Below, in pieces: positions 240-21,138 of a stretch of 64,000 bases of DNA. A program made the position numbers and the translations under genes. The notes below the pieces were generated by a model that was not told where the DNA came from, made no database searches, and saw only the letters and a list, made by a program, of their open reading frames with translations. Every line of letters begins with the position of its first letter. The first letter of the stretch is position 1. The stretch is from a virus (taxonomy: Duplodnaviria; Heunggongvirae; Uroviricota; Caudoviricetes): positions 28,436 to 92,435 of IMG/VR virus record IMGVR_UViG_2609459856_000007, one strand, 5' to 3'.

Positions 240-241
240 GC

Positions 242-1801: not shown

Positions 1802-1846
1802 AAACCTCTTTCCTTCGTGCCTTTTGTATGGTAATTGGCTATTATG

Positions 1847-1864
1847 TTAAGTAAGTGCTTACAC
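1847..1864. promoter_or_regulatory. palindromic TAAGTA-n-TACTTA motif in divergent helicase/ParB intergenic region
   Basis: ttaagtaagtgcttacac; family recurs at 11 sites. Confidence 0.35.
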
Positions 1865-1865
1865 A

Positions 1866-2564
1866 ATGTATTGTATCAAAAATATGGATGTGAAAATTAC
1901 GATTCTACAGGTGGAAGTCGCGAACCTGCGTCCGAACCCCTGGAATACCAACTCCGTTGGGGCGCAAAACTTCGAAAAACTGAAAGGTTCCATCGAAAAG
2001 TTGGGCTTTTTTAAGCCAATTCTGGCGCGAGAGCTGGACGGCGGCATTTTTGAGATTCTCGGTGGCGAACATCGCTGGCGTGCCGCGATGGAGCAGGGCA
2101 TTTCAACGGTTCCCGTCATCTCCGTGGGCAAAATTAACGACCTGGTGGCCAAACAGATGTCCCTCGTCGACAACGAGCGCTACGGCGAAGACGATCAGGT
2201 CGCTTTGCAGCGCTTAATCGAAGAAATCCAGTCTGAAATCGACTACCGGTTGTCCGATATCGCCCCGTATGACGACGAAATGGCGGCAACACTCGCCAAA
2301 GCGTCCGTTATCGATCTTGAAGCGCTGGAAGCGCTCTCCCGTGGCGATGACGAGCCGGTCGATGAGGACAAACGCGAGAAAACCGAGCGAGTCGGCGCTG
2401 AACACCAGACGATGCGCTTCAAGGTGACGTTTGATGCGTCAGATCGGGTCGCCGACACCATCAAAACCATCATCAAAGAGCAGGGAATCAATACCGGTAA
2501 CGAAATGGAGAACGCCGGGGAAGCCCTGGTGTGGCTGGTCGACTACTACAAGGAGCGTATGTAA
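1866..2564 (+). CDS. ParB/Srx-like nuclease domain protein
   Basis: ILGGEHRWRAA motif typical of ParB N-terminal domain; start could be 1884. Confidence 0.7.
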   Translation: MYCIKNMDVKITILQVEVANLRPNPWNTNSVGAQNFEKLKGSIEKLGFFKPILARELDGGIFEILGGEHRWRAAMEQGISTVPVISVGKINDLVAKQMSLVDNERYGEDDQVALQRLIEEIQSEIDYRLSDIAPYDDEMAATLAKASVIDLEALEALSRGDDEPVDEDKREKTERVGAEHQTMRFKVTFDASDRVADTIKTIIKEQGINTGNEMENAGEALVWLVDYYKERM

Positions 2565-3232
2565 TGACCAAAAACTTTGAAATCGTCTATCGAAACCCGG
2601 CAGAACTCATCCCGTATGAGATGAACGCCAAAAAACATGACGAACAGCAGATCCGCGATCTGGCGGCCGCCATCAAAAAGCGCGGTTTTGACCAGCCGAT
2701 CACGGTCGACAAGCACGACGTCATCATTACTGGCCACGGTCGTCGCGAGGCGGCTCTTCTGGCTGGTCTGGAGCGTGTGCCGGTCATTGTTCGCGACGAT
2801 CTGAGCGAAGAAGAAGTGAAGGCTAAGCGTCTGGAAGACAACCGCCTGGCCAGTATTGACTACGACGCCATCAAATTGCAGCAGGAACTGGAATCCCTGG
2901 TGCTGGGCGACGTCGAGGTCTTCGGTTTTGAAGAGCGCGAGCTGAACGTGCTTGTCGGCAGCATGACCGAAGAGATGGAAACCGGCTCTCTGGTGCTCGA
3001 TCTGGGCGAAGAGACGGAGCGCCAGAAGGAAGAGCACACCGAGATCAGTCGCGAAGTGGCCTCTGAAGAAGTCCGCGTCATCGACGTATTGGGCTTTAAA
3101 ACGCTCCCTGCTGGCTCTGCCATTGTGGTTGGGGATTTGCTTGCCCACATGGAAGAAATCACGGGAGAGAGCGGGGTAGACGCTTTCGTGGCGTATGCGG
3201 AGAAAGTTTCTTCTGGTGAGCTGGCCGCATGA
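2564..3232 (+). CDS. ParB-like nuclease domain protein (second copy)
   Basis: ITGHGRREAA motif; ATG overlaps upstream stop (TAATG); ORF track start 2531 is an upstream GTG. Confidence 0.7.
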   Translation: MTKNFEIVYRNPAELIPYEMNAKKHDEQQIRDLAAAIKKRGFDQPITVDKHDVIITGHGRREAALLAGLERVPVIVRDDLSEEEVKAKRLEDNRLASIDYDAIKLQQELESLVLGDVEVFGFEERELNVLVGSMTEEMETGSLVLDLGEETERQKEEHTEISREVASEEVRVIDVLGFKTLPAGSAIVVGDLLAHMEEITGESGVDAFVAYAEKVSSGELAA

Positions 3233-3867
3233 GCAAATACACCATCAACGTATCGTTTCAGACCCGCGTGAACAAAACCACGCGCACGCTGGAGATTGCC
3301 GAATCGTTCGGTCTTGGCCTGGACGAAAAAGAGTGGACGCTTTACGACAATCTGGAGCTGGAAGTGAAGCAGGGCGATGTGGTGTACATCACCGGCCAAT
3401 CCGGTTCCGGTAAATCCGTTGTGCTGCGCGAGCTGCAACGCCAGATGAAGGATGAAGGGCTTTCTGTAGCCTCCATCGATGACTTTGCCTTCGACAATGA
3501 GGTTAACGTCATTGACCAGCTGGGCAAAACCACCAGCGAAGCGCTGGGGCTGCTGTCTATGGCCGGATTGAATGACGCCTATCTCTTTGTGCGTAAGCCA
3601 TCCGAGATGTCTGACGGCCAGAAATACCGTCTCAAGATCGCCAAGCTGATCGAGTCCGGCGCGAAAGTCTGGGCTGCCGACGAATTTGGCGCTGTTCTCG
3701 ACCGTGTAACCGCCCAGGTTGTGGCGTCGAACCTCCAGCGTGCCGCCCGTAAGGTTGGTGCGACGGTAATGGTGGCGACGACCCACGAAGACCTGAAGAA
3801 CGCGCTGCGCCCGGATATGCAGATCACCAAGCACTACAAAGAACGCGTGAAGGTGGAATATGCCTGA
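3229..3867 (+). CDS. minimal ABC-type ATPase domain protein
   Basis: Walker A GQSGSGKS, signature-like SDGQKYR, Walker B VWAADEF, H-loop TTHE; ATGA overlap with upstream gene. Confidence 0.65.
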   Translation: MSKYTINVSFQTRVNKTTRTLEIAESFGLGLDEKEWTLYDNLELEVKQGDVVYITGQSGSGKSVVLRELQRQMKDEGLSVASIDDFAFDNEVNVIDQLGKTTSEALGLLSMAGLNDAYLFVRKPSEMSDGQKYRLKIAKLIESGAKVWAADEFGAVLDRVTAQVVASNLQRAARKVGATVMVATTHEDLKNALRPDMQITKHYKERVKVEYA

Positions 3868-4114
3868 TTTGAAGATCGTAGAGCTGAAGCCATCGAAAGA
3901 GGCTGACAACAACAACGTTGAAGTCATCCGCCTGCTGGAAGAAGCACTCCAGTACGCCAGAGAAGGCAAAAGCCAGAGCCTGGCACTGCTGATGATCAAC
4001 AACGACGGCAGTGTGCTGGATTGCTGGCATAACGGTGGGCGTCCATACGTCATGGTTGGGGCGATGGAATCGCTTCGCCTGGACTTCATCAATGCCAATA
4101 TCGAGCGTAGGTGA
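3860..4114 (+). CDS. hypothetical protein
   Basis: 84-aa ORF translationally coupled in operon. Confidence 0.4.
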   Translation: MPDLKIVELKPSKEADNNNVEVIRLLEEALQYAREGKSQSLALLMINNDGSVLDCWHNGGRPYVMVGAMESLRLDFINANIERR

Positions 4115-4119
4115 TCGAC

Positions 4120-5037
4120 ATGACAGGCATCATCATCAAACGCTACCGCCCGGAAGAGTTCCCGCGTCATCTGGACTTTCTGGAGCGTATGACCGTTACC
4201 AAAGGCACGGTTGAAGACTGGCACGCGCTGAAGTCGCTGCACTACAAGACGGATGGTAAGCCGTTTGCGCCAACGTATTATCGCTGCGAACTGGACGACC
4301 GGCTGGTGGGCGTCGTGGTTATGGCTTACCCGAAACTGCTGCTGGCGCCTCGCCATCGCATGTTTCCTAAGCTGAAGCCAACCACCAATACCACCGTGGC
4401 CAACCAGTATTGGGGGCGGTACGTGAACAACAACTTTGCGGTGATCAGCCGTTCCGTTGTGGACACTCAGTACCGCGGTGTCGGCGTCTCCTATCGAATG
4501 ATTAACCTGGTTAGCAGGATGCACGACCGGCCAATCATCGAGATCCAGTCGTCGATGAGCAAATACAACCCGTTCGCCATGAAAGCAGGGTTCCAGTTCA
4601 TCCGTCCGGAGCGTCCGAAGAGCTATGAGAGTGCGTTGCGTGTCTTCCAGCGTCATTTCCGTTCCGACCCTGGCGACAACGAAGCGATCGTCAAAGAGCT
4701 GTTTGCCATGAGTGAGTCTCGCCGTCGTCGTGCGCTGCGTGATCTGGTCGCTGACTACCACAAGAACAGTTCCCTGGCCAAAGCCGGGCGTAATCGTGGC
4801 ACGACGATTCAGGACATTGCCGACAGCCTGGTGGACGAGGCCAGCATCGTGAAGCTGCTCAAGGACATTCACAACCTGAGCTTCACGTCTCCGCTGTATG
4901 GCGTGTACCGAAACCCGGACTTTGGTCGTCAGCTGCCGGACACGCTGCCACTGCTGGCATTCGACAAACAGCCTTTGAATAACCCTCTTGAAATTGCATT
5001 ATCCGAAGAAGCCCCCGCCGATCGCAGACCGTGTTAA
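4120..5037 (+). CDS. hypothetical protein, possible GNAT-like fold
   Basis: AGGTGA RBS before ATG 4120; YRGVGVSYRMINLV resembles acetyl-CoA binding motif A (weak). Confidence 0.4.
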   Translation: MTGIIIKRYRPEEFPRHLDFLERMTVTKGTVEDWHALKSLHYKTDGKPFAPTYYRCELDDRLVGVVVMAYPKLLLAPRHRMFPKLKPTTNTTVANQYWGRYVNNNFAVISRSVVDTQYRGVGVSYRMINLVSRMHDRPIIEIQSSMSKYNPFAMKAGFQFIRPERPKSYESALRVFQRHFRSDPGDNEAIVKELFAMSESRRRRALRDLVADYHKNSSLAKAGRNRGTTIQDIADSLVDEASIVKLLKDIHNLSFTSPLYGVYRNPDFGRQLPDTLPLLAFDKQPLNNPLEIALSEEAPADRRPC

Positions 5038-5258
5038 CGCAGTGAACCGCATGTTGATGAGTGCCTCGGGCGAAACCCGGTTGTACATCGATCCGAAGTG
5101 CAAACACCTCATCGACTCGCTGGAGAAGGTGATCTACAAGCCAGGCTCACGCGATATGGATAAGACTGGCGGCATCGAACACAGTGCGGATGCGTTAGGT
5201 TATCCGGTTCATCGTAGGTATCCGGTGAAAAATCGTGTTATTCTTGGTGGATCTAGAT

Positions 5259-5274
5259 AGGTAAGTACTTACCT
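5259..5274. promoter_or_regulatory. perfect 16-bp palindrome AGGTAAGTACTTACCT upstream of portal-like gene
   Basis: Member of recurring TAAGTA-n-TACTTA motif family. Confidence 0.4.
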
Positions 5275-5293
5275 AATAGGAAAAGAAAATCAA

Positions 5294-6868
5294 ATGGAAT
5301 TGACTGACAAGCAAATCAAAGACCTTGTGGCACGACGCCACCCAGAATATGAGAAGAAAAAAGAACATTGGGACTTCCTCGCCAGCACCTACGCTGGCGG
5401 GCGTGCCTGGTTCAACGACAATATCTTCCGTTACTTCAAAGAGGGCGATCAGGAGTTCAAAGAGCGCCTGGAACGCGCTTATCGCTTCAACCATACGCGC
5501 GAAGTGGTAAACCTCATCAACAAATACCTCTTCAAAGAGGTCATTCACCGCAACACTGATGAAGCACCGGAGCAGATCCGCAATTTCTGGAAGCGAGCCA
5601 CGCGCCAGAACGCCTCCATCGATGCGTTTATGGCGGCTATCGATCTGCAATCATCCATTTATGGCCGTATCTGGGTTGTCGTGGATAGCACGATGAACGT
5701 CGATGTTGAGTCTGTTGCAGACGAGAAGAAAAATGATGCGCGTGCCTACGCTTACTGGATTTCGCCGCAGCAGCTGCTTGATGTTGCCTGGGATGAAGAC
5801 GGCAATATGTTGTGGGCGCTGATTGTTGAAATCGCGCGCGACGACGAAGATCCGTTCACTTCAACCGGGCAGGAATACCAGCGTTACCGTCTGTGGACGC
5901 AAAACGAGTGGTATCTGTTCCGTGAAGAAGTGAAGAAGGGTTCCGGAAATAGCGGTCGCCGTCAGGCCAAAGTCGTTCTGGAGGATAGCGGCCAGCATAA
6001 TCTGGGCGTGGTGCCGGTGTTCCCGGTGGATTGCATTGGTGAAAGCGAGTCTCCGTATTTTAGCCCGTCGTTGATTGACGATATTGCCTATCTTGATCGC
6101 GCCGTGGCCAACTACCTGTCGAACCTTGACGCGATTATTCAGGATCAGACATTCAGCCAGTTAGCGATTCCGGTTCAGTCCCTGCTGCCGGGCGATGAAA
6201 ACCACACCAAAGTGCTCGAAATGGGGACAAAACGTGTCTTCACCTTCGATTCTGAGAGCGGTAATCAGCCATTCTATCTGTCTCCAGACCCGAAACAGGC
6301 TCAGATGATCATCACCACGATTAAGACGGTGATTAATGAGATCTACCATTCCGTTGGTGTGGCTGGTGAGCGAACCAAGCAGGATAACGCGCAGGGTATC
6401 GACAACTCTTCGGGGGCAGCGAAGATGTACGACTTCCAACGTATTAACAGTCTGTTGGTGACAAAAGCAGAGCGCCTCGAAAGGGCAGAACGCCAAATGA
6501 TGGAGTTGGCTGCGAAATGGATGGGCATCGAATTGGATGAAGACCACTCTCTGATCGCTTACCCGGAGAGTTTCGATATTCGTGGTCTGACTGACGAATT
6601 TGCCGTCGCTGAGAAATTGTCGCTGTTACAGGCGCCTGATTCTGTACGTCGTCATCAGATGGAAATGCTCATAGAAAAGATCTTCCCGAATATTTCCGAA
6701 GCGATGCAAAAGGAATTTAAAAAAGATCTCTTGAAATTTCCTCTAAAAAATGCTCCTGGCGCCCTTGAAAATAAGTCAGTACTTACTTATGATCGAGATA
6801 CAGTCCAAGAAAGCGGACAAGATCAACCCCGAGGGAATGGGGACTCATCTACTCAAGAGACCGAGTGA
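5294..6868 (+). CDS. putative portal protein
   Basis: 524 aa, no NTPase motif, immediately upstream of scaffold-like and capsid-like genes; assignment by size and position only. Confidence 0.5.
   Translation: MELTDKQIKDLVARRHPEYEKKKEHWDFLASTYAGGRAWFNDNIFRYFKEGDQEFKERLERAYRFNHTREVVNLINKYLFKEVIHRNTDEAPEQIRNFWKRATRQNASIDAFMAAIDLQSSIYGRIWVVVDSTMNVDVESVADEKKNDARAYAYWISPQQLLDVAWDEDGNMLWALIVEIARDDEDPFTSTGQEYQRYRLWTQNEWYLFREEVKKGSGNSGRRQAKVVLEDSGQHNLGVVPVFPVDCIGESESPYFSPSLIDDIAYLDRAVANYLSNLDAIIQDQTFSQLAIPVQSLLPGDENHTKVLEMGTKRVFTFDSESGNQPFYLSPDPKQAQMIITTIKTVINEIYHSVGVAGERTKQDNAQGIDNSSGAAKMYDFQRINSLLVTKAERLERAERQMMELAAKWMGIELDEDHSLIAYPESFDIRGLTDEFAVAEKLSLLQAPDSVRRHQMEMLIEKIFPNISEAMQKEFKKDLLKFPLKNAPGALENKSVLTYDRDTVQESGQDQPRGNGDSSTQETE
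6773..6790. promoter_or_regulatory. TAAGTA-n-TACTTA motif inside 3' end of portal-like gene, upstream of scaffold gene
   Basis: taagtcagtacttactta. Confidence 0.3.
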
Positions 6869-6890
6869 TAAGTAACGAAAAGGTATTTCT

Positions 6891-7787
6891 ATGAATCTGT
6901 GGCAAATGCTTATGGCCCGTCGTGGCCTGATGGATGTAGCCGAAGCGCATGAGCGCGGCGGCGCTGGTGGCGGTGCTCCTGCTGGAGACAATGAGCAGAG
7001 CATTCAAGACCCAGGCAAACAGGGCGAGCAAAAAGAGCAACCGAAGGGTGACGACGATGAGTATGCCGGTATGACTCAGGAAGAGTTGCTGGCAGAACTG
7101 CGTAAGTCTAAGAAAGCCGGTGCTGATCTGTTGAAAGAGAACATGAAGCGCAAGGAGAAAGAGCGCACATTGGCCGATCAGCTGGCTCAGTACGGTGATA
7201 TTGACCCGACGCGTGCTCGTCAGCTTCTCGAAGCTGAACAAGCCGCAGAAACCGCACGTCGGGAGGCGGAGCAGGCTGAACTGGAACGTCGTGGTGAGTT
7301 CGATGCTGTGAAAAAGCAGATGATCGAAGCACACCAGACTGAACTGGCACAGCGCGACGAACGCTACTCCGCTCTGGAGAGCGAGAACGCCGCACTGAAG
7401 GCTCAACTGGTCGAAATGACTGTTGGTGTTTCCTTCAGCAGTTCTGCTTTCCTGCGTGACAAAGTTCTGATGACTCCGGCTAAGGCACGCGTTATCTACG
7501 GCTCTCATTTCGAAGTGGGTGAAGACGGTAGTGTTGTGGGCTTTGATAAGCCAGCCGGTCAGAAAGAACGTGCAGTTCTGGTTGACGGTGAAGGCAAGCC
7601 GTTACCGTTCGAATCCGCGATTGAGCGCATTCTGCGTGCAGATCCGGAAGCTGACGCACTGTTGCGTAGCGAAGCCAAGCAGGGTGCTGGTTCCAATAGC
7701 AAACCGACCCACAAAGTAAGCCAGCCGAAGAGCAAGTCGACTATGGATAAGTTGACCTCCGGTCTGGGAAAAATCGGACTCAAGTAA
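6891..7787 (+). CDS. putative scaffolding protein
   Basis: Acidic N-terminus, long Ala/Glu/Gln-rich predicted coiled coil, located between portal-like and capsid-like genes. Confidence 0.5.
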   Translation: MNLWQMLMARRGLMDVAEAHERGGAGGGAPAGDNEQSIQDPGKQGEQKEQPKGDDDEYAGMTQEELLAELRKSKKAGADLLKENMKRKEKERTLADQLAQYGDIDPTRARQLLEAEQAAETARREAEQAELERRGEFDAVKKQMIEAHQTELAQRDERYSALESENAALKAQLVEMTVGVSFSSSAFLRDKVLMTPAKARVIYGSHFEVGEDGSVVGFDKPAGQKERAVLVDGEGKPLPFESAIERILRADPEADALLRSEAKQGAGSNSKPTHKVSQPKSKSTMDKLTSGLGKIGLK

Positions 7788-7813
7788 CATCTTAAATCAT
7801 AGGGAAATGAAAG

Positions 7814-8689
7814 ATGCCATTACTGCGTGATGAAGCTGAAAAGCTGTCTAATAACGAACTTGAGCAGGGTGTGATCGAGACCATCATCGATCGCGATGAC
7901 CTGTTCGCTATTCTGCCTTTCATGAAGATTAATTCTAAGGCATACCTTTACAACCGCGAAGCTACCCTGAGCGAAGCTACCTTCATTGATGTGAACGACA
8001 CCATCACTGAAGGCGCAGCAACCTTCAGCGAACACGTTGCGAAGCTACGTATCCTGGCAGGCGACGTAGACGTCGACAAATTCCTGGCGACCACTATGTC
8101 CGACACCAACAACCAGCTGGCAATCCAGGTTCGTCAGAAGGTGAAAGGTCTGGCTCGCGCATTCCGCCGCAATCTGATTCTGGGCGACTCCAGCACCAAC
8201 ACCAAAGCGTTCGACGGTATTCCGAAACTGATGCACGACGATCAGAAGATCGACATCGAAGGCGCTTCCATGACCTTCTCCATGTTCGACGAACTGGTCG
8301 ACGCGGTGAAAGATCTGGGTGCGGACTGCATCATGATGCGCTCCGAGCATCTGCGTGCTTATCGCGCTCTGCTGCGTACCGTTAATATCGGCCCGTCCGA
8401 AATTATGATGGAAAACTTCGGTCGACCGATGTTGTGCCACAACGGTGTACCTTTCATCGTGAACGACTTCATCCCGACTGACGCGGGCAAAGCAAGCATC
8501 TACTGTCTGCACCTGTCCGAAGAGAACGGTGTGACCGGTCTGTATGGCGGTGAAAACGCTGGTATCGTTGTTGAGAACATCGGTACTGTTCAGAACAAAG
8601 ACGCAACCCGTACCCGCGTTAAGTGGTACTGCTCTCTGGCGAACAAGCACGACAAAGCTATCGCCGCGCTGACCAATGTAAAAATTTGA
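7814..8689 (+). CDS. putative major capsid protein
   Basis: 291 aa, position after scaffold, followed by strong terminator; no motif-level confirmation. Confidence 0.5.
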   Translation: MPLLRDEAEKLSNNELEQGVIETIIDRDDLFAILPFMKINSKAYLYNREATLSEATFIDVNDTITEGAATFSEHVAKLRILAGDVDVDKFLATTMSDTNNQLAIQVRQKVKGLARAFRRNLILGDSSTNTKAFDGIPKLMHDDQKIDIEGASMTFSMFDELVDAVKDLGADCIMMRSEHLRAYRALLRTVNIGPSEIMMENFGRPMLCHNGVPFIVNDFIPTDAGKASIYCLHLSEENGVTGLYGGENAGIVVENIGTVQNKDATRTRVKWYCSLANKHDKAIAALTNVKI

Positions 8690-8702
8690 TCAGAATGATA
8701 GG

Positions 8703-8720
8703 TAAGTAGTTATCTACTTA
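8703..8720. promoter_or_regulatory. TAAGTA-n-TACTTA motif
   Basis: taagtagttatctactta. Confidence 0.35.
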
Positions 8721-8723
8721 ATA

Positions 8724-8751
8724 TGGGTGGGCTATACGCCCACCTTTTTTG
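8724..8751 (+). terminator. rho-independent terminator after capsid gene
   Basis: GGGTGGGC-tatac-GCCCACC stem followed by TTTTTT. Confidence 0.65.
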
Positions 8752-8763
8752 TAGGAGCGATAA

Positions 8764-9090
8764 ATGCCAGAACAAAAGATGAAAATCATGGAGGAGACGT
8801 TTGCGGATTTCACAGGGCATATGTGCCGTGCCGGATTCACCAACTCCGTCTCCAACGAGCCTCTGAGCGAGCGCCAGCAGAACCATCTTGCGGCTTGCTT
8901 CCGGACAGTTCCGTTCACGCAGTCTGTCAGCGTGGAGTCTGTTGCTCTGACTCCTGATTCTGTCTCTGTTGAGAAGGGGAAGTCAGTCAAATTGCGAGTT
9001 GATGTGCAACCGTCAAACGCAACCAATCAAAAAGTCACCTGGACTTCTCAAAATAGCGACAAAGCGACCGTGGATCAGAACGGTATCTGA
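8764..9090 (+). CDS. bacterial Ig-like (Big_2) domain protein
   Basis: RBS GGAG; C-terminal SVSVEKGKSVKLRVDVQPSNATNQKVTWTSQNSDKATVDQNG matches Big_2 pattern. Confidence 0.65.
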   Translation: MPEQKMKIMEETFADFTGHMCRAGFTNSVSNEPLSERQQNHLAACFRTVPFTQSVSVESVALTPDSVSVEKGKSVKLRVDVQPSNATNQKVTWTSQNSDKATVDQNGI

Positions 9091-10252
9091 AGAAAAAAAC
9101 GCCCGAGCAACTGCCGACGAATCTTTGGCACAACAGATAACTACATTGAAGAGTCAAACGGGCAAGGATATTAAGGCGGCTGTAGCTGAAGAGACGAAAG
9201 CCAGAACTGATGCTGATTCCGCTTTGGCTTCTAATATCACTAATCTACAGGCTCAAACGAGCAAAGATATTCATGCTGCGATTACATCTGAAGCGACTGC
9301 GCGTACAAGCGCCGACAATGCACTAAGTGGGAGAGTTGACACCTTAAAAGCATCAGTAGATGGAAATACAGCAACAATTCAACAACAGGCCACAGCTATT
9401 GCTGATACGAACAAGAAGGTATCAACAGCCTGGACGCTGAAAATGGAAACCTCCACCAGCGGAGGCCAAAAATATGTTGCCGGCATAGCGTTGGGCATCG
9501 ACACAACAGGTCTATCGCAGTTTTTGGTGCAGGCAGATCGCTTTGGTTTGGTGAACTCCGTTAATGGGAAAATTACAACGCCATTCGTTATTGATGCCGG
9601 TGTGGCTTATATGAACGGAGCTTATATCAAGAACGGCACCATTGATAACGCCAAAATAGGCAACTTCATTCAGTCCAACGATTACTCAAGCGGGATGACG
9701 GGGTGGCATATTAATAAAAACGGGAACTCAGAGTTTAACAATGTAACTGTTAGAGGCACCGTTTACGCAACGAATGGCAAATTCACAGGAGAAATACAGG
9801 CTACCAGCGGAACATTCAGAGGCACGGTACAAGCAGATCACTTCGTAGGCGATGTCGCTAACATGTATGTGGGCAATGACTTCTCAGTTCGTTACAACGG
9901 CACATATACAATGACATATACAGACTCTTCTTCGTCTGCATTGCCCAAAAATATTTATGTGGCAATAAATGTATATACGGGGGGCGTCGGCCCTGTTGCA
10001 GCCCAATTTACCTGCAATGGAGTGACGAAGACCGCAACCACTGGTAAGGGGACAACATACAGAGACCCTGATCTTAATTCAACAAGATCTACAGGCGTCG
10101 GTGGCACTCTTTACGCTGCTTTTAACAATGTTACCTCAAGAACTGTTGCTGTTACGGTAAAAGTGACCAGTTCATCACAGACACATATTTATTCGCCCGT
10201 GATGCTAATCAGCCGTGGAAGTGGCGCATTTTCCATGTCGGGCATCAGTTAA
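9086..10252 (+). CDS. fibrous virion protein ORF with no start codon of its own (+1 frame relative to 8764..9090); fusion by frameshift or disrupted gene
   Basis: Coiled-coil-like TxADxALA repeats then beta-rich C-terminal domain; no ATG/GTG/TTG with RBS in frame near 9086; A7 run at 9093-9099. Confidence 0.45.
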   Translation, partial: SEEKNARATADESLAQQITTLKSQTGKDIKAAVAEETKARTDADSALASNITNLQAQTSKDIHAAITSEATARTSADNALSGRVDTLKASVDGNTATIQQQATAIADTNKKVSTAWTLKMETSTSGGQKYVAGIALGIDTTGLSQFLVQADRFGLVNSVNGKITTPFVIDAGVAYMNGAYIKNGTIDNAKIGNFIQSNDYSSGMTGWHINKNGNSEFNNVTVRGTVYATNGKFTGEIQATSGTFRGTVQADHFVGDVANMYVGNDFSVRYNGTYTMTYTDSSSSALPKNIYVAINVYTGGVGPVAAQFTCNGVTKTATTGKGTTYRDPDLNSTRSTGVGGTLYAAFNNVTSRTVAVTVKVTSSSQTHIYSPVMLISRGSGAFSMSGIS

Positions 10253-10323
10253 TTGATGGGAATAATGAGCAGCAATGTATACAGCGTGTTTTCTTAGTGC
10301 AAAAGGATTTTGTATCATGGATA

Positions 10324-10344
10324 ATAAGTAAGTATATACCTATT
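10324..10344. promoter_or_regulatory. ATAAGTAAGTAnATACCTATT motif, followed by hairpin 10346-10367
   Basis: Near-identical 21-mer also at 17735-17755. Confidence 0.4.
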
Positions 10345-10387
10345 TGTGTGGGCAAGGACGCCCACACTTCAAGGAGTGAAAAAGAAC

Positions 10388-13300
10388 ATGTGGTACAGGG
10401 AAGGTACTGTTACATTTACAAAAGGAAGCGACACAATATCAGGCATCGGAACACGTTGGAATTTGACCGAAAACGGCGTGTTACCGGGCATGATTGTCAT
10501 TGGTCCTGACAATAAGTTGTATGAGGTCAAGCGCGTAACCAGTGATACGGTCATTGTCCTCTCAGAACCTTATACCGGCGAAACTCAATCTAAAGTTCCG
10601 TGCCGAATCATTACGACCTATGAAGGCGACTTAACTCAGTTTAGTGCGCGCTTTACTGCACTAATGTCGCGTATGTCGGCTGATTCCAAGTCCATGCGCA
10701 GTTGGTTGACCGCTCTGGATGATGTGACAATCGAGCGTGAAGACGGTACAGAAGTGACCGTTAAGCCGCTAATGCAGATCGTCAACGAGCATAACGAAAA
10801 CGTTGAGTGGTATAAAAATAACACCGATGCGATTGAGGCCGCTGGAGACAAAGCTCGGGAGGCGGCGGCCAGTGCTGTCGCTGCGGCAGAAAGTGCCAAC
10901 ACTGCTGTAGAAAAAGCCTCTCAGGCATCTCAAAGTGCATCCGCTGCGGTATCTTCACAAAGTGCGGCGAGTGAGAGTGCAGCTGCTGCGGAAAAATCTG
11001 AAACAAACGCAGAAGCGGCAAAAGAAGCGGCAGCAGAATCAGCATCTGTGGCGTCGACTAAAGCATCGGAGGCAGCCACATCAGCGTCCAGTGCCTCTGC
11101 ATCTAAGGATGCGGCTAAATTATCAGAGACTAACGCTTCATCGAGTGCAAACGCGGCAGCATCATCAGCTACAGAAGCTGCAAATTCATGTAAGGCAGCA
11201 AAAGCATCAGAGACAAACGCAAAAGCGTCTGAAGCTGCTGCCGAACAGAGTGCATTGTCTGCAAACAGTTCGAAATCTGCGGCAGAAACGTCAGCGAGCG
11301 CGGCCTCAGTAAGCGCGGATAGTGCTTCATCAAGTGCAACGTCGGCAGAAAAGTCTGCGGAAAGCGCTTCGTTATCCGCGGCAAATGCCACCGCTAAAGC
11401 GACAGAGGCGACGAAACAGGCAACAGCTGCGGAAAAGTCAGCAGAGGCGGCAAAATCTTCTGAAACCAATGCAAAGACTTCAGAAGACAATGCCGCTGCT
11501 TCTAAGGAGACAGCAGCCGAATCTGCAAGCTCTGCCTCTGTTTCAGCTTCCTCGGCGTCATCTTCAAAAGATGAGGCCGCTCGCCAGGCGTCAGCGGCAG
11601 CAGAGAGTGCGACAACGGCATCAACGAAGGCGACGGAAGCGGCAGACAGTGCGACGGCGGCTGCGCAGAGCAAAAATGCGGCAGAATCCGCGGCAACACG
11701 CTCTGAGACAGCGGCAAAACGAGCTGAGGATATTGCATCCGCCGTGGCGCTTGAGGATGCAAGCACGACGAATAAGGGAATAGTACAACTTAGTAGCTCA
11801 ACTAATAGCGAATCGGAGTCATTTGCAGCCACCCCAAAAGCAGTAAAGACAGCATATGATCTTGCTAATGGCAAATACACTGCACAGGACGCCACCACGT
11901 CGCAAAAGGGGCTTGTTCAGCTTAACAGTGATACCAACAATAGCAGTGAAAGTTATGCGGCCACATCAAAGGCCGTGAAGGCCGCATACGACAATGCTGA
12001 AACACGCCTTCGGAAAGACCAGAATGGCGCGGATATACCTAGCAAAGACACCTTCGCAAAAAATATTGGCGCAGCGAAAGCTGCTGGCGGCAGTATCAGT
12101 ATTGGGGGAGACAGCAACAACTGGACGACGGCGCAATTTATTGAGTGGTTGGAGTCTCAGGGGGCATTCAATTATCCATACTGGATGTGCAAAGGCTCTT
12201 GGTCTTACGCTGCCAATAAAATCATCACGGATACCGGTTGTGGGAATATACAACTCGCTGGCGCTGTAGTTGAAGTTATGGGGGTTCGGGATGCTATGAC
12301 GATTCGCGTCACTACCCCCACGACGGCAACGAATGGCGGAACCGTCAAGGCTCAGTTTACCTACATCAACCACGGTGACTCTTATGCGCCAGGCTGGAGG
12401 CGCGACTTTAATCGAGCTGGCGATTCAATGTCAGGCCAATTGACTTTGGCGAATATGTCGCAGCCATTAAGATCACCTGGTGGTGGTATATTTGCCAATG
12501 ATGGCAACGTGTATATCAATAAACCGGGTTTCGCTGGATGGATTGATGCACTCTTTTTGAAATTAACCGGAGGAACTTTAACCGGGTCACTTGGATTTCA
12601 AAATTCAAACGGGAAAGTATTCAGGGTGCAGACTACTGAAACTCCGTCACTGAATACTTATATGCAGGTATGGGGAAATTCTTCAAGGCCAACGGTAATT
12701 GAATTCAAAGACGATCAAGGCTATCACTTTTACAGTCAGAGAAACACTGACAATACTATTACAATGAGTATAAATGGAGAGGTGGTTTCCGAAACAGCAA
12801 ATGCTTTCCGTGCAGTATATGGGAATTATGGCTTCTTCATTCGAAATGATGGGGCGAATACTTACTTTCTGTTGACAAATTCAGGTGATCAACATGGAAG
12901 TTGGGGACCTTTACGTCCACTATATATTAGCAATACAACAGGACGAGTGACACTTGGAAATGGCGTTGATATTAGTAATGGGGCAGTAATTAACGGTAGC
13001 GTCGGATTAGGGGTGTCGAATGCGCTTGGCGGAAACTCTATCGTATTAGGCGATAATGATACTGGCTTAAAACAGAATGGTGATGGCATTCTTGATGTTT
13101 ATGCAAATAATGCCCATGTTTTTCGGTTCACTAATGGCACGTTGCAAAGTCTTAAGCCGTTGAGTGTAACGGGGGATATCACGTCAAGTGCATGGGTTTA
13201 TGCCAACAGCTACTCTATCAACAGCGGTTCTGGCGCATGGATCGATATGCGGAGCCAGAACGTCATCTTCGGGAAGAATGCTGTAAGCACAAGCTCTGCA

Positions 13301-13777
13301 CAAGCGTTGTTGAGACAAGACCACGCGGATCGCAAATTCTTTGTGGGTGGCTTGGGAAACAGTCAGTTTGGTTTTTACATGATCAACAACTCACGTACCG
13401 CGAATGGCACGGATGCGAACGCATATCTTCAAAATGATGGTACTTGGGTTTGTGGAGGTAATGGTAACTTTAACGATGTTTATATCCGCTCTGATGCCAG
13501 ACTTAAAAGTAACTTCGCACCGATTAAAAATGCTCTGAGTAAGGTGAAAGTACTGAGCGGATTAATTTACGATAAAAAGGAAAATTTTCAATCTAGTACG
13601 GTTCGTCGTGAGGCGGGTGTTGTTGCTCAGGAACTCCAAAAGGTTTTACCGGAAGCTGTTTCAGCTTACAAAGATGCAAATGGCGAAGATGTTCTGACTA
13701 TTTCAAATTCTGCACAAATAGCACTTCTTATTGAGGCTGTTAAAGAGCTGGCAGCAATCATTGAACAAAAAATATGA
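10388..13777 (+). CDS. tail fibre protein with C-terminal intramolecular chaperone (peptidase S74-like) domain
   Basis: RBS AAGGAG before ATG 10388; long Ala/Ser-rich low-complexity region; fibre repeats (TNKGIVQLSSSTNSESESFAATPKAVKTAYD, twice); C-terminal DARLKSNF...VAQELQKVLPEAV...IALLIEAVKELAAIIEQ. Confidence 0.8.
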   Translation: MWYREGTVTFTKGSDTISGIGTRWNLTENGVLPGMIVIGPDNKLYEVKRVTSDTVIVLSEPYTGETQSKVPCRIITTYEGDLTQFSARFTALMSRMSADSKSMRSWLTALDDVTIEREDGTEVTVKPLMQIVNEHNENVEWYKNNTDAIEAAGDKAREAAASAVAAAESANTAVEKASQASQSASAAVSSQSAASESAAAAEKSETNAEAAKEAAAESASVASTKASEAATSASSASASKDAAKLSETNASSSANAAASSATEAANSCKAAKASETNAKASEAAAEQSALSANSSKSAAETSASAASVSADSASSSATSAEKSAESASLSAANATAKATEATKQATAAEKSAEAAKSSETNAKTSEDNAAASKETAAESASSASVSASSASSSKDEAARQASAAAESATTASTKATEAADSATAAAQSKNAAESAATRSETAAKRAEDIASAVALEDASTTNKGIVQLSSSTNSESESFAATPKAVKTAYDLANGKYTAQDATTSQKGLVQLNSDTNNSSESYAATSKAVKAAYDNAETRLRKDQNGADIPSKDTFAKNIGAAKAAGGSISIGGDSNNWTTAQFIEWLESQGAFNYPYWMCKGSWSYAANKIITDTGCGNIQLAGAVVEVMGVRDAMTIRVTTPTTATNGGTVKAQFTYINHGDSYAPGWRRDFNRAGDSMSGQLTLANMSQPLRSPGGGIFANDGNVYINKPGFAGWIDALFLKLTGGTLTGSLGFQNSNGKVFRVQTTETPSLNTYMQVWGNSSRPTVIEFKDDQGYHFYSQRNTDNTITMSINGEVVSETANAFRAVYGNYGFFIRNDGANTYFLLTNSGDQHGSWGPLRPLYISNTTGRVTLGNGVDISNGAVINGSVGLGVSNALGGNSIVLGDNDTGLKQNGDGILDVYANNAHVFRFTNGTLQSLKPLSVTGDITSSAWVYANSYSINSGSGAWIDMRSQNVIFGKNAVSTSSAQALLRQDHADRKFFVGGLGNSQFGFYMINNSRTANGTDANAYLQNDGTWVCGGNGNFNDVYIRSDARLKSNFAPIKNALSKVKVLSGLIYDKKENFQSSTVRREAGVVAQELQKVLPEAVSAYKDANGEDVLTISNSAQIALLIEAVKELAAIIEQKI

Positions 13778-13839
13778 TAATGTTGGAGAGGCTAAGACCT
13801 CTCCCATAATAAACTGTCATAATATTTGAGAGGGTTATT

Positions 13840-14097
13840 GTGTCAATTTCAAATGTTCCAGGATGGATAGGATCATCAGCGGTTTCCGAAACAGGGCAAC
13901 GTTGGATGAGTGCTGCCCGTATTGGCCTTGCACAAATTGCTGACGTTATGCCTCAAGTTTCTGCCGCAATGGATAAAGCGCAAGGCAATATCTCCAGTGG
14001 AGATACGGTACGCATCATCTTTGGCGTAGCTACCATTCTTGTGGCAGCATTCATTGCCTGGTCCCAGGTTCGCAAGCACCAGAAAGGATTAGTGTAA
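13840..14097 (+). CDS. small membrane protein, possible holin
   Basis: GTG start; one TM helix IIFGVATILVAAFIAW; directly upstream of spanin genes. Confidence 0.35.
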   Translation: MSISNVPGWIGSSAVSETGQRWMSAARIGLAQIADVMPQVSAAMDKAQGNISSGDTVRIIFGVATILVAAFIAWSQVRKHQKGLV

Positions 14098-14099
14098 GT

Positions 14100-14351
14100 A
14101 TGTTCGACGGCCTGTTGTTCAAAATGAAATCCGCTTTGTTCACTCTGGCCGCCGTCATTCTAGTCCTTGTCGGCGCATACTCCTATGGCGGGGATATGGC
14201 CAGACGCAGTATGGAAGAGAAAGAACGGCGGGAAGATAACAAGCGTCTTCAAAGCACAGTGGAAGTGGTGAATGAGACGAACAGTGAAATACGTCAGAAA
14301 GATGCTTCTGCCATTCATCGTGAGCTGCATGATAAGTGGGTGCGTAATTAA
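14100..14351 (+). CDS. Rz-like inner-membrane spanin (i-spanin)
   Basis: N-terminal TM anchor, charged coiled-coil periplasmic region; embedded overlapping lipoprotein ORF. Confidence 0.6.
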   Translation: MFDGLLFKMKSALFTLAAVILVLVGAYSYGGDMARRSMEEKERREDNKRLQSTVEVVNETNSEIRQKDASAIHRELHDKWVRN

Positions 14352-14487
14352 GCCACAGACCACCAGCGTGTTGTTCTGCGATGGCGCTGAACCTATTTAT
14401 ATCAGCAATGACGATGTAATGACCGAAGAAACCGAACGCCAAATCCTTTTTCACAATACGATGGGAGAGAGAGTTTGCGGTTGGTGA
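14302..14487 (+). CDS. Rz1-like outer-membrane lipoprotein spanin (o-spanin), overlapping Rz in +1 frame
   Basis: Lipobox MISGC; starts inside Rz and extends past its stop (overlapped architecture). Confidence 0.5.
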   Translation: MLLPFIVSCMISGCVIKPQTTSVLFCDGAEPIYISNDDVMTEETERQILFHNTMGERVCGW

Positions 14488-14519
14488 TGTCGAAGTTCCC
14501 CTCAAATGAGGGGGACACA

Positions 14520-15041
14520 TTATTCTTCGAACAATTTTTCGATAGATTTTGTTGGATAGAACAAAGAACGATCGTTGTTACCAACCAGCTGGATAAAGCC
14601 CAAACTTTTATAAAACGCCCTGGCTTTATCGTTCAACGCCTCAACGAAAAGCCCATGAATGCCTACCGCAAGAGATGCATTGTACACAACACGCATTGCG
14701 TGAGTTACAAGCATTGAGCCAAGCCCCTGACCTTGAAGAGATTTGTCCAAAGCCAGTCTGCCTAAAGTGATACTTGGGACATGCCGATAAGGCACTTTCT
14801 TTTGCTGACTCTTTGAAGGTAAGTTTTCTTTCTCAAAGCAGCTGCCTGACAAAGTGTAATAACCTAATACCTTTGGTATTTCTTCTTTAGTGCAAAGCAC
14901 ATAAGCGCGAAGAATTTTTCCTTCATGCTGTCTTTTTAAGTGGTTGGTCAAAAATGCGTTTAGTGACTCTTCGCCGCAATCAAAACCGTTTAGATCATAA
15001 TCTTTCTCTCCAGAGAAAATCTCGATCGTCGTATTGCTCAC
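14520..15041 (-). CDS. GNAT-family acetyltransferase toxin (TacT-like)
   Basis: GNAT motif A QGQGLGSMLV; 7 nt downstream of DUF1778-type antitoxin gene; GTG start. Confidence 0.75.
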   Translation of the reverse strand: MSNTTIEIFSGEKDYDLNGFDCGEESLNAFLTNHLKRQHEGKILRAYVLCTKEEIPKVLGYYTLSGSCFEKENLPSKSQQKKVPYRHVPSITLGRLALDKSLQGQGLGSMLVTHAMRVVYNASLAVGIHGLFVEALNDKARAFYKSLGFIQLVGNNDRSLFYPTKSIEKLFEE

Positions 15042-15048
15042 GAGTAAA

Positions 15049-15318
15049 TTACTCCATGCTTTTCAGACGATTGGCAGCTCGTTTCAGCTTGTCGTTCGGT
15101 GCCGGAGGATTGCTTATAGCATCCATAACCAGATTCCAGGACTCTTCACTTAGAACCAGTCTACGGTGTTGCTCTATCACCTTCACGGCACGTTCGGATG
15201 CACTGCTAACCATGAACTGGGTAATGCTCTGGTTAGACATTGCGGCAGCTTCCTCGATGATGCTTTTATCGTCATCGGTTAATCTCAAATCGATGCGCTG
15301 CTTTTTCAGTGCGGACAT
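15049..15318 (-). CDS. DUF1778-family antitoxin (TacA-like)
   Basis: 89 aa; RIDLRLTDDDKSIIEEAAAMSNQSITQFMV... matches DUF1778 pattern. Confidence 0.75.
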   Translation of the reverse strand: MSALKKQRIDLRLTDDDKSIIEEAAAMSNQSITQFMVSSASERAVKVIEQHRRLVLSEESWNLVMDAISNPPAPNDKLKRAANRLKSME

Positions 15319-15329
15319 GTGTACCCCCT

Positions 15330-15357
15330 GATGGCCGGTGATGTAGGAAGGCCATCA
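15330..15357. promoter_or_regulatory. inverted repeat GATGGCC-n-GGCCATC just upstream of tacA-like start, candidate operator
   Basis: Palindrome adjacent to antitoxin start codon. Confidence 0.3.
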
Positions 15358-15437
15358 TTGCTCTCTATTTAAACTGAGTTTTCGACTCAAAGGTTATTTA
15401 ACTGGGCTATAGCCCATTGCGTATGTGTCATCAAATT

Positions 15438-15460
15438 GTGTACGGCAATTTACCGTACAC
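15438..15460. promoter_or_regulatory. inverted repeat GTGTACGG-caattta-CCGTACAC in partition/TA intergenic region
   Basis: Perfect 8-bp arms, 7-bp spacer; candidate centromere or operator. Confidence 0.3.
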
Positions 15461-15637
15461 GTAATATAGAGATGATTGTCACTTTTTTCAACAGACAAAT
15501 GAAAACAGTTACTAGCAATAGGCAATAACAACCTACTAAATAACCTTTACACCGCAGCCGTAGGCATTTAGGCTATATCACATATAAGAAAACAAGTTGT
15601 TTCAGACGATAATTATATACGCAAAGGGAACTCTCCA

Positions 15638-16306
15638 ATGACCAAGATCTTTGTGGTTGGCGGCACAAAGGGCGGGCCTGGCAAATCCACTGTTGCCCAG
15701 CAAATTGCCGTTTGCCTGAAAGTCAAAAAGAAGAAGAAGGTTTATATCACTGATATAGATATTCAGCGCACGACAACAAGCTGGTGTGAAGACCGTCGAC
15801 AGAACGAAGACCTTGAGCTGATTCCTTTTGCATACGTTCAGGATGACATCATTAAGCACCTAAAATCGCTTCAGGGTAGAGCTGAGTTTGTAGTGGTAGA
15901 TGCTGGTGGCTTTGACTCCGAAATTCAGCGACAAGCGATGCTGATGGCCGACGTTATCATTATCCCGCTTCGTCCTAAGCGTCGTGATTTGAAATCTCTG
16001 CGTGACATCGATCCTATTATCGACAATGTTCGTAATGTAAACGATAAAGTGAAGGTCCGCGCGGTCATGAACCAGTGCCCGGCTTTGCCATCACAAGTGT
16101 CTCGCATTTTGGCGGCTAAAGAGATTGTCGAGACGGTTGGCATCGAGTCTGCGCCAGTCAATTTATATAACCGCAACGTCTATGATGATGCGGAAGAGTC
16201 TGGTCGTTCTATCTTTGAAATGACCGGTAGCGAGCGCGACAAAAAGGCGGAAGCCGAGTTTGAAGAATTTGTAGATTATCTGTTGAGTCTGGAGGAAGAA
16301 GAATAA
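15638..16306 (+). CDS. parA: ParA-family partition ATPase (small, type Ib)
   Basis: Deviant Walker A GGTKGGPGKST; RBS AAAGGGA. Confidence 0.8.
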   Translation: MTKIFVVGGTKGGPGKSTVAQQIAVCLKVKKKKKVYITDIDIQRTTTSWCEDRRQNEDLELIPFAYVQDDIIKHLKSLQGRAEFVVVDAGGFDSEIQRQAMLMADVIIIPLRPKRRDLKSLRDIDPIIDNVRNVNDKVKVRAVMNQCPALPSQVSRILAAKEIVETVGIESAPVNLYNRNVYDDAEESGRSIFEMTGSERDKKAEAEFEEFVDYLLSLEEEE

Positions 16307-16665
16307 TGTCCATGAAAATGGGTGACCTAGCAAAGCGCAAAGAGCCTGATGCACCGGCCAAGAACACAACTCCTTTGCGCCAACCAGTCAGACCACAGGG
16401 ACGCCCGACTCGTGGCAAAGAGAAAATTAAAAGCCGCACAATGTCACTGGAGGACGAATACTTCGAACTGCTGGAAATGATGAAGTTCATCCCTCGTTTC
16501 GAGAAGTTCACCCGTTCTGACGTGATTCGCGCAGCCATTTTCCATCTGGCAGAGAAGTCACCGCAGGAAATCGAGGACATCGTGAAACTTAACGAGGCGA
16601 TCACAGCTGCCGATGTCACGATGCGTACCGATGAAATCAAACGAGAGTTGATGAAGAAAGGTTAA
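16306..16665 (+). CDS. partition centromere-binding protein (ParG/ParB-like)
   Basis: Small basic protein coupled to parA (start overlaps parA stop). Confidence 0.5.
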   Translation: MSMKMGDLAKRKEPDAPAKNTTPLRQPVRPQGRPTRGKEKIKSRTMSLEDEYFELLEMMKFIPRFEKFTRSDVIRAAIFHLAEKSPQEIEDIVKLNEAITAADVTMRTDEIKRELMKKG

Positions 16666-16717
16666 AAATTATGCATTGGCGCAATGTACGCGCCAATGCA
16701 TAAGTACAGTGTCAGCT

Positions 16718-17485
16718 TTATGCCGCGCTAACACTATGTTCATTCCTAACCACCCCAACCTTCACAAAAGGGCTGCCGTAGCTTGGTGGCTTCTTGATTA
16801 ATTTGCCTACATACAGTTTTCTAATATGCTCATCGGCTATTCTGCCAACAAATTCATAACGTTTTGTGTCGGGGCCAAGAGCTATATCCCTTGTAAAGTA
16901 CTGCTGAGAACCGGCTTTGACCCAGCATTCAATCTGATAAACTTCCATTATCAGGCCCCCATATGTAGCGTAGGCATATTTGAGATTCTCGTCTCTTGGA
17001 ACCTTTGCCCATACGCCACGCGTAGCTTCATATAATGCCAGAGCGGACATTCCTGACTTGTAGGTGCTGTTTAGCAGGAAGGCAAGACCGGCGTGCTCAG
17101 GAGCAATTTCAGTTTCCTCTTGCAGCACTAAGTGATGGTAGGCGTCCAGTGATATTCTGCCCATCATGGAACCACTTCCTCGTACCTTATTCGTAAGCTC
17201 TCCGACCCCCATAAGGTCGATGCATGTCGCCTCAACAAGTTTGGCTGTGGTTTCATCCATACCATGACGAAGAATATCTATGCCTAATTTTTTATTAGCC
17301 AAAAGTTCTTTGATCCGCATGGATTTGGGAGAGTCATCGGGATACTTGATGTGATCGAGACAACGAGTCGATTTGCCTTTTCCTATGTAAAACGGTCTTT
17401 TCATCTTGTCTTCTGTATCATAGAGACAGTAAACATAGTATTTAGCCTTATCCAATGATTTCGCGTATACCGATAAATCGTCCAT
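16718..17485 (-). CDS. GIY-YIG nuclease domain protein
   Basis: N-terminal YYVYCLYD...PFYIGKGKSTR with downstream Glu/Asn; 255 aa, unknown C-terminal domain. Confidence 0.7.
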   Translation of the reverse strand: MDDLSVYAKSLDKAKYYVYCLYDTEDKMKRPFYIGKGKSTRCLDHIKYPDDSPKSMRIKELLANKKLGIDILRHGMDETTAKLVEATCIDLMGVGELTNKVRGSGSMMGRISLDAYHHLVLQEETEIAPEHAGLAFLLNSTYKSGMSALALYEATRGVWAKVPRDENLKYAYATYGGLIMEVYQIECWVKAGSQQYFTRDIALGPDTKRYEFVGRIADEHIRKLYVGKLIKKPPSYGSPFVKVGVVRNEHSVSAA

Positions 17486-17734
17486 TATTGCATCTCTTAG
17501 CTACTGACTAATGCGTTCTATTTTACACATAAGTGTTTAATCAATTTTACAGGCTCAAAGTGTAGAGCTTCTGGGTGTCTAAGACGACAAGTTATGCCTG
17601 TTTCTGTATATAAATAATAAGTAACTTATTAAATATATACGGAAGCAGGTCTTTTAAAAGACACCCACCAGAACAACTCCCTTCCGTTTCCACTTCCCAA
17701 AAATATCTCCAGTCGCTATGATTCGCTAACTTAG

Positions 17735-17755
17735 ATAAGTAAGTACATACCTATT
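17735..17755. promoter_or_regulatory. ATAAGTAAGTAnATACCTATT motif upstream of Toprim gene
   Basis: ataagtaagtacatacctatt. Confidence 0.4.
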
Positions 17756-17858
17756 AAAGGGAATCATGTGAGCCAGATCTTCTTCAACACTATCGACAAT
17801 GACCAGTACGATTTCATGACAGAGTGGAATACTGATACCGGTTTACGATCTGGATGGC

Positions 17859-19538: not shown

Positions 19539-19770
19539 ATTTTTTGTTCTGTTGATATAGGATGAACAGTTTAGACGCGGCAAGCGTCAAGTGTGCGAAA
19601 AGGGTACTTAAATTTAGTTAATATGTCAGCTTTGTTGATTTAGTTTATGGTCGGTAAAGTTACTGGGAAACTAATAACCATAAGAAATAGTACGCCATTT
19701 AATTATTGTGGCACTGCTCGTGTTTTGATTAACTAATACCTGCGATAAATATAAATAAAGGGAAGCCAAC

Positions 19771-20184: not shown

Positions 20185-20247
20185 TGTGAATGCCGGGCTT
20201 ATCGTCTGCCTGGCTTCTTCGTATAGCAGACTATTGCGCCCGATATA

Positions 20248-21121: not shown

Positions 21122-21138
21122 GCCTCGATAAAACATTT

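Follow-up and report, generated by a model that had tools for sequence, protein, structure and literature searches.

The overlapping pair of reading frames found at positions 8764 to 10252 of a 64,000-nt stretch of viral DNA, here called the window, is almost certainly the scar of a deletion, in which 14,790 bp were lost from an SSU5-like (pSLy3-type) Escherichia coli phage-plasmid, probably by illegitimate recombination at the dinucleotide TA. The two frames are remnants of different genes, the front of an Ig-like (Big_2) gene and the tail end of a lambda-J-like tail-tip gene, which one deletion would bring side by side, and they form a pseudogene pair in a hybrid phage-plasmid that has become defective; decay of this kind is already known. 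The lost stretch comprised the genes for head completion, for the tail tube, the chaperones and the tape measure, the minor tail genes L, K and I, and three quarters of the J gene. An earlier note on this DNA had taken the same frames for an Ig-like domain fused to a fibre by programmed frameshifting, with a disrupted gene or a base-calling error as alternatives; the idea of disruption pointed in the correct direction, but it is two genes, and not one, that have been hit by a single large deletion.

A query across the junction was searched against PLSDB and the complete RefSeq E. coli genomes, and the locus of the E. coli plasmid pTB212 (NZ_CP033252.1, locus L003) served as the direct reference. 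Positions 1-486 of the query match the capsid and Ig-like genes, at up to 99.6%, and positions 485-1801 match the 3' end of J and the start of the fibre gene, at up to 99.8%; the same break at 485/486 recurs in comparisons with no fewer than 17 plasmids for the right side and no fewer than four for the left, and also with a draft contig (L013). In the alignment to pTB212, window positions 4998-9085 correspond to 1128-5212 of the reference locus (99.6% identity) and positions 9084-11873 to 20001-22790 (98.9% identity), and the 14,790 bp of the intact element lying between the two aligned blocks are missing. The junction is thus placed at 9084-9085, and a three-way alignment shows that the parental flanks have only the TA at these two positions in common. 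Of the 142 codons of the Ig-like gene, the left break interrupts codon 108; the right break interrupts codon 1136 of J, which has 1524. A peptide spanning the join would read ...ATVDQNG/SEEKNARATADE... (...VDQNG-(x)-SEEKNAR...), and the native continuation of the Ig-like gene beyond the left break, taken from the pTB212 alignment, is ...NGNVVGVAVGTATIEV.... As the two genes occupy different frames in the parent and the number of bases lost, 14,790, is divisible by three, the J remnant comes to stand in the +1 frame. Neither a transposase nor a repeat was found at the junction, nor an IS or att site, and the collinear flanks, the absent middle, the few shared bases and the lack of IS or att are those expected of a microhomology-mediated deletion. 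The event would have been an illegitimate, microhomology-mediated recombination, through either replication slippage or end-joining. A homologous Big_2 domain within J was also considered as the substrate of recombination and was rejected, since the flanks share 2 bp only and the intact J has no Big_2 match in Pfam.

In pTB212 and in at least 16 other plasmids (99-99.8% identical), the Ig-like and J parts are separate genes. The Ig-like gene of pTB212 is a complete, stand-alone ORF of 142 aa that adjoins the major capsid gene, while its J-like gene encodes 1524 aa, starts 3.4 kb upstream of the breakpoint and has the 388-codon frame of the window as its final codons. Phage SSU5 (NC_018843.1) and pTB212 have the same order: the major capsid gene is followed by the Ig-like gene, which is separated by about 11-12 kb of genes for head completion, tail tube, tape measure and minor tail proteins from the J-like gene (1385-1524 codons), and the tail-fibre gene comes last. 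No record in PLSDB or among the complete RefSeq E. coli genomes holds 80% or more of the query at one place, and in the records holding both parts, such as pTB212, these lie at two separate sites. In Megablast against phages, the capsid and Ig-like part matches Salmonella phage SSU5 at 92.7%, and the second ORF matches the "host specificity protein J" of other phage-plasmids. The gene order of the window is that of pTB212 and SSU5, and pTB212 is 99-99.8% identical on both sides of the junction; these two elements differ from the window in possessing the 14.8 kb with head-completion and tail genes and a complete terminase, as well as the genes that the SSU5 annotation calls holin and endolysin.

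Upstream of the two remnants lie the portal gene (5294-6868), a scaffold-like DUF6651 gene (6891-7787) and the major capsid gene (7814-8689), all with 96% identity to phage SSU5, and downstream, on the + strand at 10346-13777, an intact long tail-fibre gene of 1143 aa (Phage_fiber_2, Gp34_trimer, Peptidase_S74), which is the natural downstream neighbour of J. Positions 1-31991 of the window align with pTB212 in collinear blocks of 98.6-99.7% identity, and on these sequence grounds this part is a segment of an SSU5-like (pSLy3-type) phage-plasmid of E. coli. A ParA-like gene (15638-16306) and a ParB-like gene are also found within the 64-kb window; the repA region of pTB212 is not in it.

The Ig-like remnant occupies 8764-9090 on the + strand, runs for 108 aa from an ATG start to a TGA stop at 9088-9090 and matches Big_2 in Pfam with E=8.6e-17, so that both the coordinates and the domain given for this ORF in the earlier note are correct. 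It is made up of native codons 1-107, of one Ile codon created by the junction and of the TGA, out of the 142 codons of the intact gene, and its product is identical residue for residue to the pTB212 protein WP_063085588.1 as far as ...VDQNG. This head-associated gene has been cut within its domain: in Pfam, positions 2-52 of the 79 in the Big_2 profile are covered in the window, against 2-79 of 79 in the intact protein. Any translation of the remnant would stop one codon past the join and would be predicted to yield half a Big_2 domain unable to fold. A terminator-like hairpin with a T-run, at 8725-8745 on the + strand between the major capsid and Ig-like genes, lies in a region collinear with the intact relatives and is part of the native gene arrangement.

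The second frame, at 9086-10252 on the + strand, is the 3' remnant of a lambda-J-like tail-tip gene (TipJ / DUF1983), comprising codons 1137-1524 and the stop, as identified by the pTB212 alignment and by a match to Phage_Tail_Tip (PF09327 / DUF1983). It is frame 2, i.e., +1 relative to the Big_2 ORF (8764 mod 3 = 1; 9086 mod 3 = 2), and is open from 8969 to 10252. That a protein-like frame runs on from about 9086, as the earlier note had noticed, is borne out: it encodes 388 aa, of which residues 97-232 match Phage_Tail_Tip with E=5.6e-46, which is far beyond chance. In Pfam the intact 1524-aa relative also has FNIII-A_GpJ, Phage-tail_3 and fn3 domains, of which the 388-aa remnant has none; the latter keeps the C-terminal Phage_Tail_Tip region of TipJ and is missing the N-terminal FNIII-A_GpJ / Phage-tail_3 hub domains. 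The frame had also been described as having no in-frame start codon or ribosome binding site. Literally this does not hold for the start, as two start-type codons, TTG at 8969 and ATG at 9002, stand in the +1 frame upstream of 9086, and a public gene call has a 416-aa product beginning at ATG 9002. Both codons are inside sequence of the Ig-like gene that is read out of frame, and no Shine-Dalgarno motif precedes either of them; the substance of the claim is retained, and the J remnant, which to all appearances has no genuine start or ribosome binding site of its own, is best regarded as a pseudogene. It would be untranslated or, at most, spuriously initiated.

The run of seven A residues noticed at 9093-9099 (+ strand) is indeed present, and it is also found in the intact J gene of pTB212, at 20010-20016 of the reference locus. 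It lies 3 nt past the TGA and reads in frame with J as GAA GAA AAA AAC (E-E-K-N), which marks it as ordinary coding sequence and not as a slippery site.

Programmed frameshifts are known in phage structural genes, as in T7 gene 10A/10B and lambda G/GT, and in genuine cases the overlap is conserved among relatives, a slippery motif is found within it and a complete domain is added; Ig-like domains are also reportedly sometimes added to phage structural proteins in this way. A programmed +1 ribosomal frameshift where the Big_2 ORF ends, producing an Ig-fibre fusion protein, was suggested here by the overlap of two protein-like frames, the second without a proper start, by the nearby A-run and by these Ig-like additions. 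The likeness to T7 10A/10B, lambda G/GT and the Ig-like extensions (overlapping frames, a start-less second frame, an Ig-like domain) is superficial only, and conservation, slippery motif and complete domain are all lacking at this locus. The frames are pieces of different genes, 14.8 kb apart in every intact relative; in pTB212, SSU5, the draft contig L013 and at least 16 other plasmids they belong to separate genes, at a distance of about 11-15 kb from each other. The Big_2 domain is interrupted in mid-fold, and in the collections searched the arrangement is seen in one isolate only. No slippery motif was found in the overlap upstream of the zero-frame stop, the A7 run being downstream of this stop and native to J; the final codons, GGU AUC UGA, leave tRNA-Ile no way to re-pair in +1 (UCU), and no Shine-Dalgarno-like stimulator is present upstream. 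The comparison with orthologues that the earlier note had recommended is decisive: the frameshift is refuted because the Ig-like and J genes are separate in the orthologues, the second with an ordinary start, and the chance that this proposal is correct is vanishingly small.

With the deletion as the preferred reading, it is important to consider whether the junction could be an artefact of assembly or sequencing, either a chimeric join or a homopolymer indel error. The source is in fact a draft short-read assembly: by offset, the window represents positions 28436-92435 of the NCBI contig JNMN01000021.1 (GCA_000700365.1), to which it is identical over window positions 1-15,037 and 20,746-41,981. 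Furthermore, the junction occurs in no other public record among those searched; the exact junction is absent from PLSDB and from the complete RefSeq E. coli genomes, a 34-nt exact search of one genome per species returned none, and as far as these sequence collections extend it appears so far private to one isolate. An artefact is nevertheless very improbable because an independent assembly of the SRR1186779 reads, produced in Logan with a different assembler, has the same junction and crosses four further junctions of the window as well. The Logan contig SRR1186779_124 (32,681 bp), in which the exact 108-aa truncated protein is recorded, spans the junction with 1 mismatch in 14,077 positions over window 5014-19090, and at its other end it differs from window 20746-37694 at two positions, giving 3 mismatches in all over about 32.7 kb; the read-level support thus consists of the NCBI and Logan assemblies, which may derive from the same isolate. 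A 2-bp overlap, moreover, would hardly be bridged by a de Bruijn assembler unless there were spanning reads, and a sister deletion in the same segment (D3, see below) occurs in at least five unrelated samples. The homopolymer version, which includes the base-calling error envisaged in the earlier note, was rejected on other grounds: the TGA precedes the A7 run, so no indel in the run can remove it, intact J genes have exactly this run, and no intact relative has the two halves next to each other.

The deletion at 9084-9085 is not the only one in this element. Comparison of the SSU5-like part (1-31991) with pTB212 and with the plasmid pYLPI6a revealed four further deletions, with microhomology of 3-6 bp. 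The first (D1), at 4998-5001, with ATTA shared, has removed about 2.12 kb, comprising an 88-aa gene, a putative small terminase gene similar to SSU5_001 and 994 nt from the 5' end of the large terminase gene, a TerL remnant of which is left at 4988-5260. At 13919-13921 (D3), with GTA shared, 1,632 bp are lost, that is, the 3' part of a gp38-like adhesin gene, a gene syntenic with the putative holin of SSU5 and the 5' part of a gene syntenic with the SSU5 endolysin, the labels holin and endolysin being those of the SSU5 annotation transferred by position and gene length and not by alignment; the fusion ORF at this scar, of 85 aa, occupies 13840-14097. Two more are found at 17827-17832 (D4; GAATAC shared; 2,765 bp lost, with a hypothetical gene, a DnaB-like helicase gene and the 5' part of a primase gene) and at 29097-29100 (D5; GATA shared; 583 bp lost, in a CobT-like gene). 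The full functional set of phage genes is consequently not present, terminase, tail module, holin-like and endolysin-like genes, DnaB-like helicase and primase being deleted or truncated.

At 31983-31991 a 9-bp overlap links the SSU5-like segment to a P1-like (IncY-type) phage-plasmid, and the Logan contig SRR1186779_124 also crosses this join. The P1-like part carries phd/doc, lpa, two pac terminase-type genes, c1, a Cre-like integrase gene and ref. Gain of a relaxase or an oriT was not seen within the window. Because of the terminase, tail and lysis-region losses, the element would be expected to form no SSU5-type virions, and it would probably persist as plasmid DNA linked to the P1-like element.

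Some indication of the order of these events comes from related contigs. The D3 fusion protein is found in eight contigs from several samples, and in two of the carriers, L023 (GCA_016673895.1) and L025, the flanks are 99.96-100% identical to the window. Both L023 and L025 have a different head/tail deletion, in which window position 4198 is joined to 9183, and L023, which reaches far enough, is without D4. A single burst of breakage and end-joining, responsible for all of the deletions and for the P1 junction, was considered and rejected on this evidence; the deletions accumulated stepwise because D3 is common to contigs that are without D4 and that have a different head/tail deletion. We infer that the loss of the adhesin and of the holin-like and endolysin-like genes was probably the earliest shared event, followed by independent losses of the morphogenesis module. 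A 179-aa product encoded downstream of D4 was tried as a marker of this deletion, but it is also present in an undeleted context (L030) and is not diagnostic.

The conversion of P1-like phage-plasmids to plasmids by loss of phage genes is documented (Pfeifer and Rocha, 2024, PMC10879196), and defective and hybrid phage-plasmids are recognised, the SSU5-like ones of E. coli being known as the "pSLy3" type (PMC12977533). Like the defective elements already described, the present one has a phage-plasmid backbone that has lost essential virion, packaging and lysis genes, probably retains plasmid functions and shows junctions with other elements; it differs from the described decay of P1-like elements in being of the SSU5/pSLy3 type, in having serial deletions at short microhomologies and in being joined to a P1-like phage-plasmid. 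Such a join is plausible because pSLy3-like and P1-like elements have been reported to be co-carried in one E. coli host (bioRxiv 10.1101/2025.09.12.675607). A useful comparison is offered by pYLPI6a (NZ_CP074043.1), which has been named as an SSU5-like element failing the completeness thresholds for phage-plasmids (PMC12977533) and is the PLSDB record closest to window 1-25000 (99.1% over 73%). As in the window, packaging and head genes are missing from pYLPI6a and its J gene is disrupted; unlike the window, it has other breakpoints and an IS3 in J, and its gp38-like adhesin, holin-like and endolysin-like genes are retained. The stepwise erosion observed here fits the published views of phage-plasmids decaying into plasmids. 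Both ORFs should be annotated as pseudogene fragments, and neither as a frameshifted fibre gene nor as "Ig-like" and "DUF1983" proteins, and the element is best placed among the defective hybrid phage-plasmids, as one unable to form SSU5-type virions. Beyond the correct annotation, the significance of the locus is slight, and it may serve as a case study in the stepwise erosion of a phage-plasmid.

The 3' end of J has been a breakpoint more than once in such elements. In other related plasmids, ParB is joined to J at positions equivalent to 9227, 9301 and 9560 of the window, and further truncations of J consist of a break at 10045, the IS3 insertion of pYLPI6a and an in-frame fusion of tail tube and J (P0020). 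The right-hand ends of deletions in J correspond to window positions 9084, 9183, 9227, 9301, 9560 and 10045, to which the fusion of tail tube and J can be added, and the tail-fibre gene is spared in all. These data bear on a further reading of the locus, in which the J remnant, although a product of deletion, is still expressed from ATG 9002 or TTG 9125 as a receptor-binding or fibre-associated protein and is kept by selection. Gene callers predict products of 416 aa and 375 aa, and several independent deletions end within the last roughly 480 codons of J, sparing its 3' end and the tail-fibre gene. Expression of this kind is nonetheless improbable: no Shine-Dalgarno motif precedes ATG 9002 or TTG 9125, no promoter-like site was found in 8500-10500, and the adhesin required by the neighbouring fibre is itself truncated in the window. 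Furthermore, there is no common conserved product because the remnants vary in length between lineages, and the survey of breakpoints is small and partly biased by the query used.

A pseudogene left by the deletion is thus the preferred account of the J remnant, and the distribution of the breakpoints can be considered apart from it. It is doubtful that the right ends of independent head/tail deletions in pSLy3-type elements cluster in the last third of J for a reason, the apparent clustering coming from a small survey with query-linked ascertainment bias. Were there a cause, it might be either a recombination hot spot in repetitive DNA coding for coiled coils or selection, in plasmid-only descendants, that maintains the J C-terminus and the fibre module or a promoter within it. 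If the clustering were true, the scar described here would be one instance of a directed and repeatable route of phage-plasmid domestication.

Besides the Ig/J deletion, which joins the front of the Big_2 (Ig-like) gene to the end of the J tail-tip gene, related plasmids and contigs of E. coli carry at least six further truncations of J that differ from one another. These lie in the loci L014, L015/L023/L025, L020 and L021, in the plasmids CP057716.1 and CP057895.1, and in the protein P0020, an in-frame fusion of tail tube and J. Their right-hand breakpoints fall at the window equivalents of 9183, 9227, 9301, 9560 and 10045, with one more at about residue 870 of J, and the left ends of three of them lie no more than 260 bp apart inside a ParB-like gene. 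In all of these J-truncated relatives the tail-fibre gene is retained. Such a pattern could reflect a hot spot or selection; it could also be the product of ascertainment bias. The tail-fibre gene itself is mosaic in the window: its 3' 2 kb (11873-13913) have no match in pTB212, the intact SSU5-like phage-plasmid used as reference, and are 99.8% identical to the related plasmid pYLPI6a. Many plasmids carry another allele of J, the switch lying at the intergenic boundary between J and the fibre gene (window ~10323).

Downstream of the tail-fibre gene, an 85-aa in-frame fusion ORF (13840-14097, junction 13919-13921) combines the N-terminus of a gp38-like adhesin with the C-terminus of the protein whose gene takes the place of the endolysin gene in the Salmonella phage SSU5. 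At this junction 1,632 bp are gone, including the gene at the position of SSU5's putative holin. The fusion protein is found identical in eight contigs from several samples, which argues that this deletion is older than the Ig/J deletion.

Comparison with pTB212 revealed further losses in the SSU5-like segment. Only the last ~88 codons of the large terminase gene are left (4988-5260), and the deletion junction at 4998-5001, where about 2.12 kb are absent, carries the 4-bp microhomology ATTA; an 88-aa gene, a putative small terminase gene and the 5' end of terL are lost, and the 296-aa gene upstream (ORF 4111-5037) carries an added foreign tail of 11 residues. The Logan contig of SRR1186779, a second assembly nearly identical to stretches of the window, starts at window 5014, 12 nt beyond this junction, and the base directly before its start, 5013, is C in the window and A in pTB212. 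A branch in the assembly graph at 5013-5014 could represent a second, terL-containing variant in the SRR1186779 sample, or it could be no more than an error tip. Two further apparent microhomology deletions are located at 17827-17832 (GAATAC; 2,765 bp absent), removing a hypothetical gene, the gene for a DnaB-like helicase and the 5' end of the primase gene, and at 29097-29100 (GATA; 583 bp absent) within a CobT-like gene.

The SSU5-like backbone stops at 31983-31991, within a metallophosphoesterase gene, in a 9-bp overlap with a P1-like (IncY-type) phage-plasmid segment that extends to ~57900 and includes phd/doc, DUF968, lpa, ref, two pac terminase-type genes (42318-44995), c1 (45020-45871, minus strand) and a Cre-like integrase gene (47017-48048). 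Since the Logan assembly also spans this join, the hybrid SSU5-like/P1-like nature of the contig is genuine.

Cargo genes near the window end, both on the minus strand, are cydAB (54964-57374; cytochrome bd oxidase subunits I and II), in a block inverted with respect to the P1-like plasmid pEcoUTI1e, and a 1165-aa autotransporter (59850-63347) with Autotransporter, AC_1, PATR and Pertactin domains. The site at 18393-19583 is a variable cargo slot in this SSU5-like (pSLy3-type) plasmid family: the window has there a minus-strand Sel1/TPR-repeat gene (396-aa ORF; 381 aa as called), whereas in pTB212 a fimbrial operon lies there together with a toxin-antitoxin pair (Phd/Doc).
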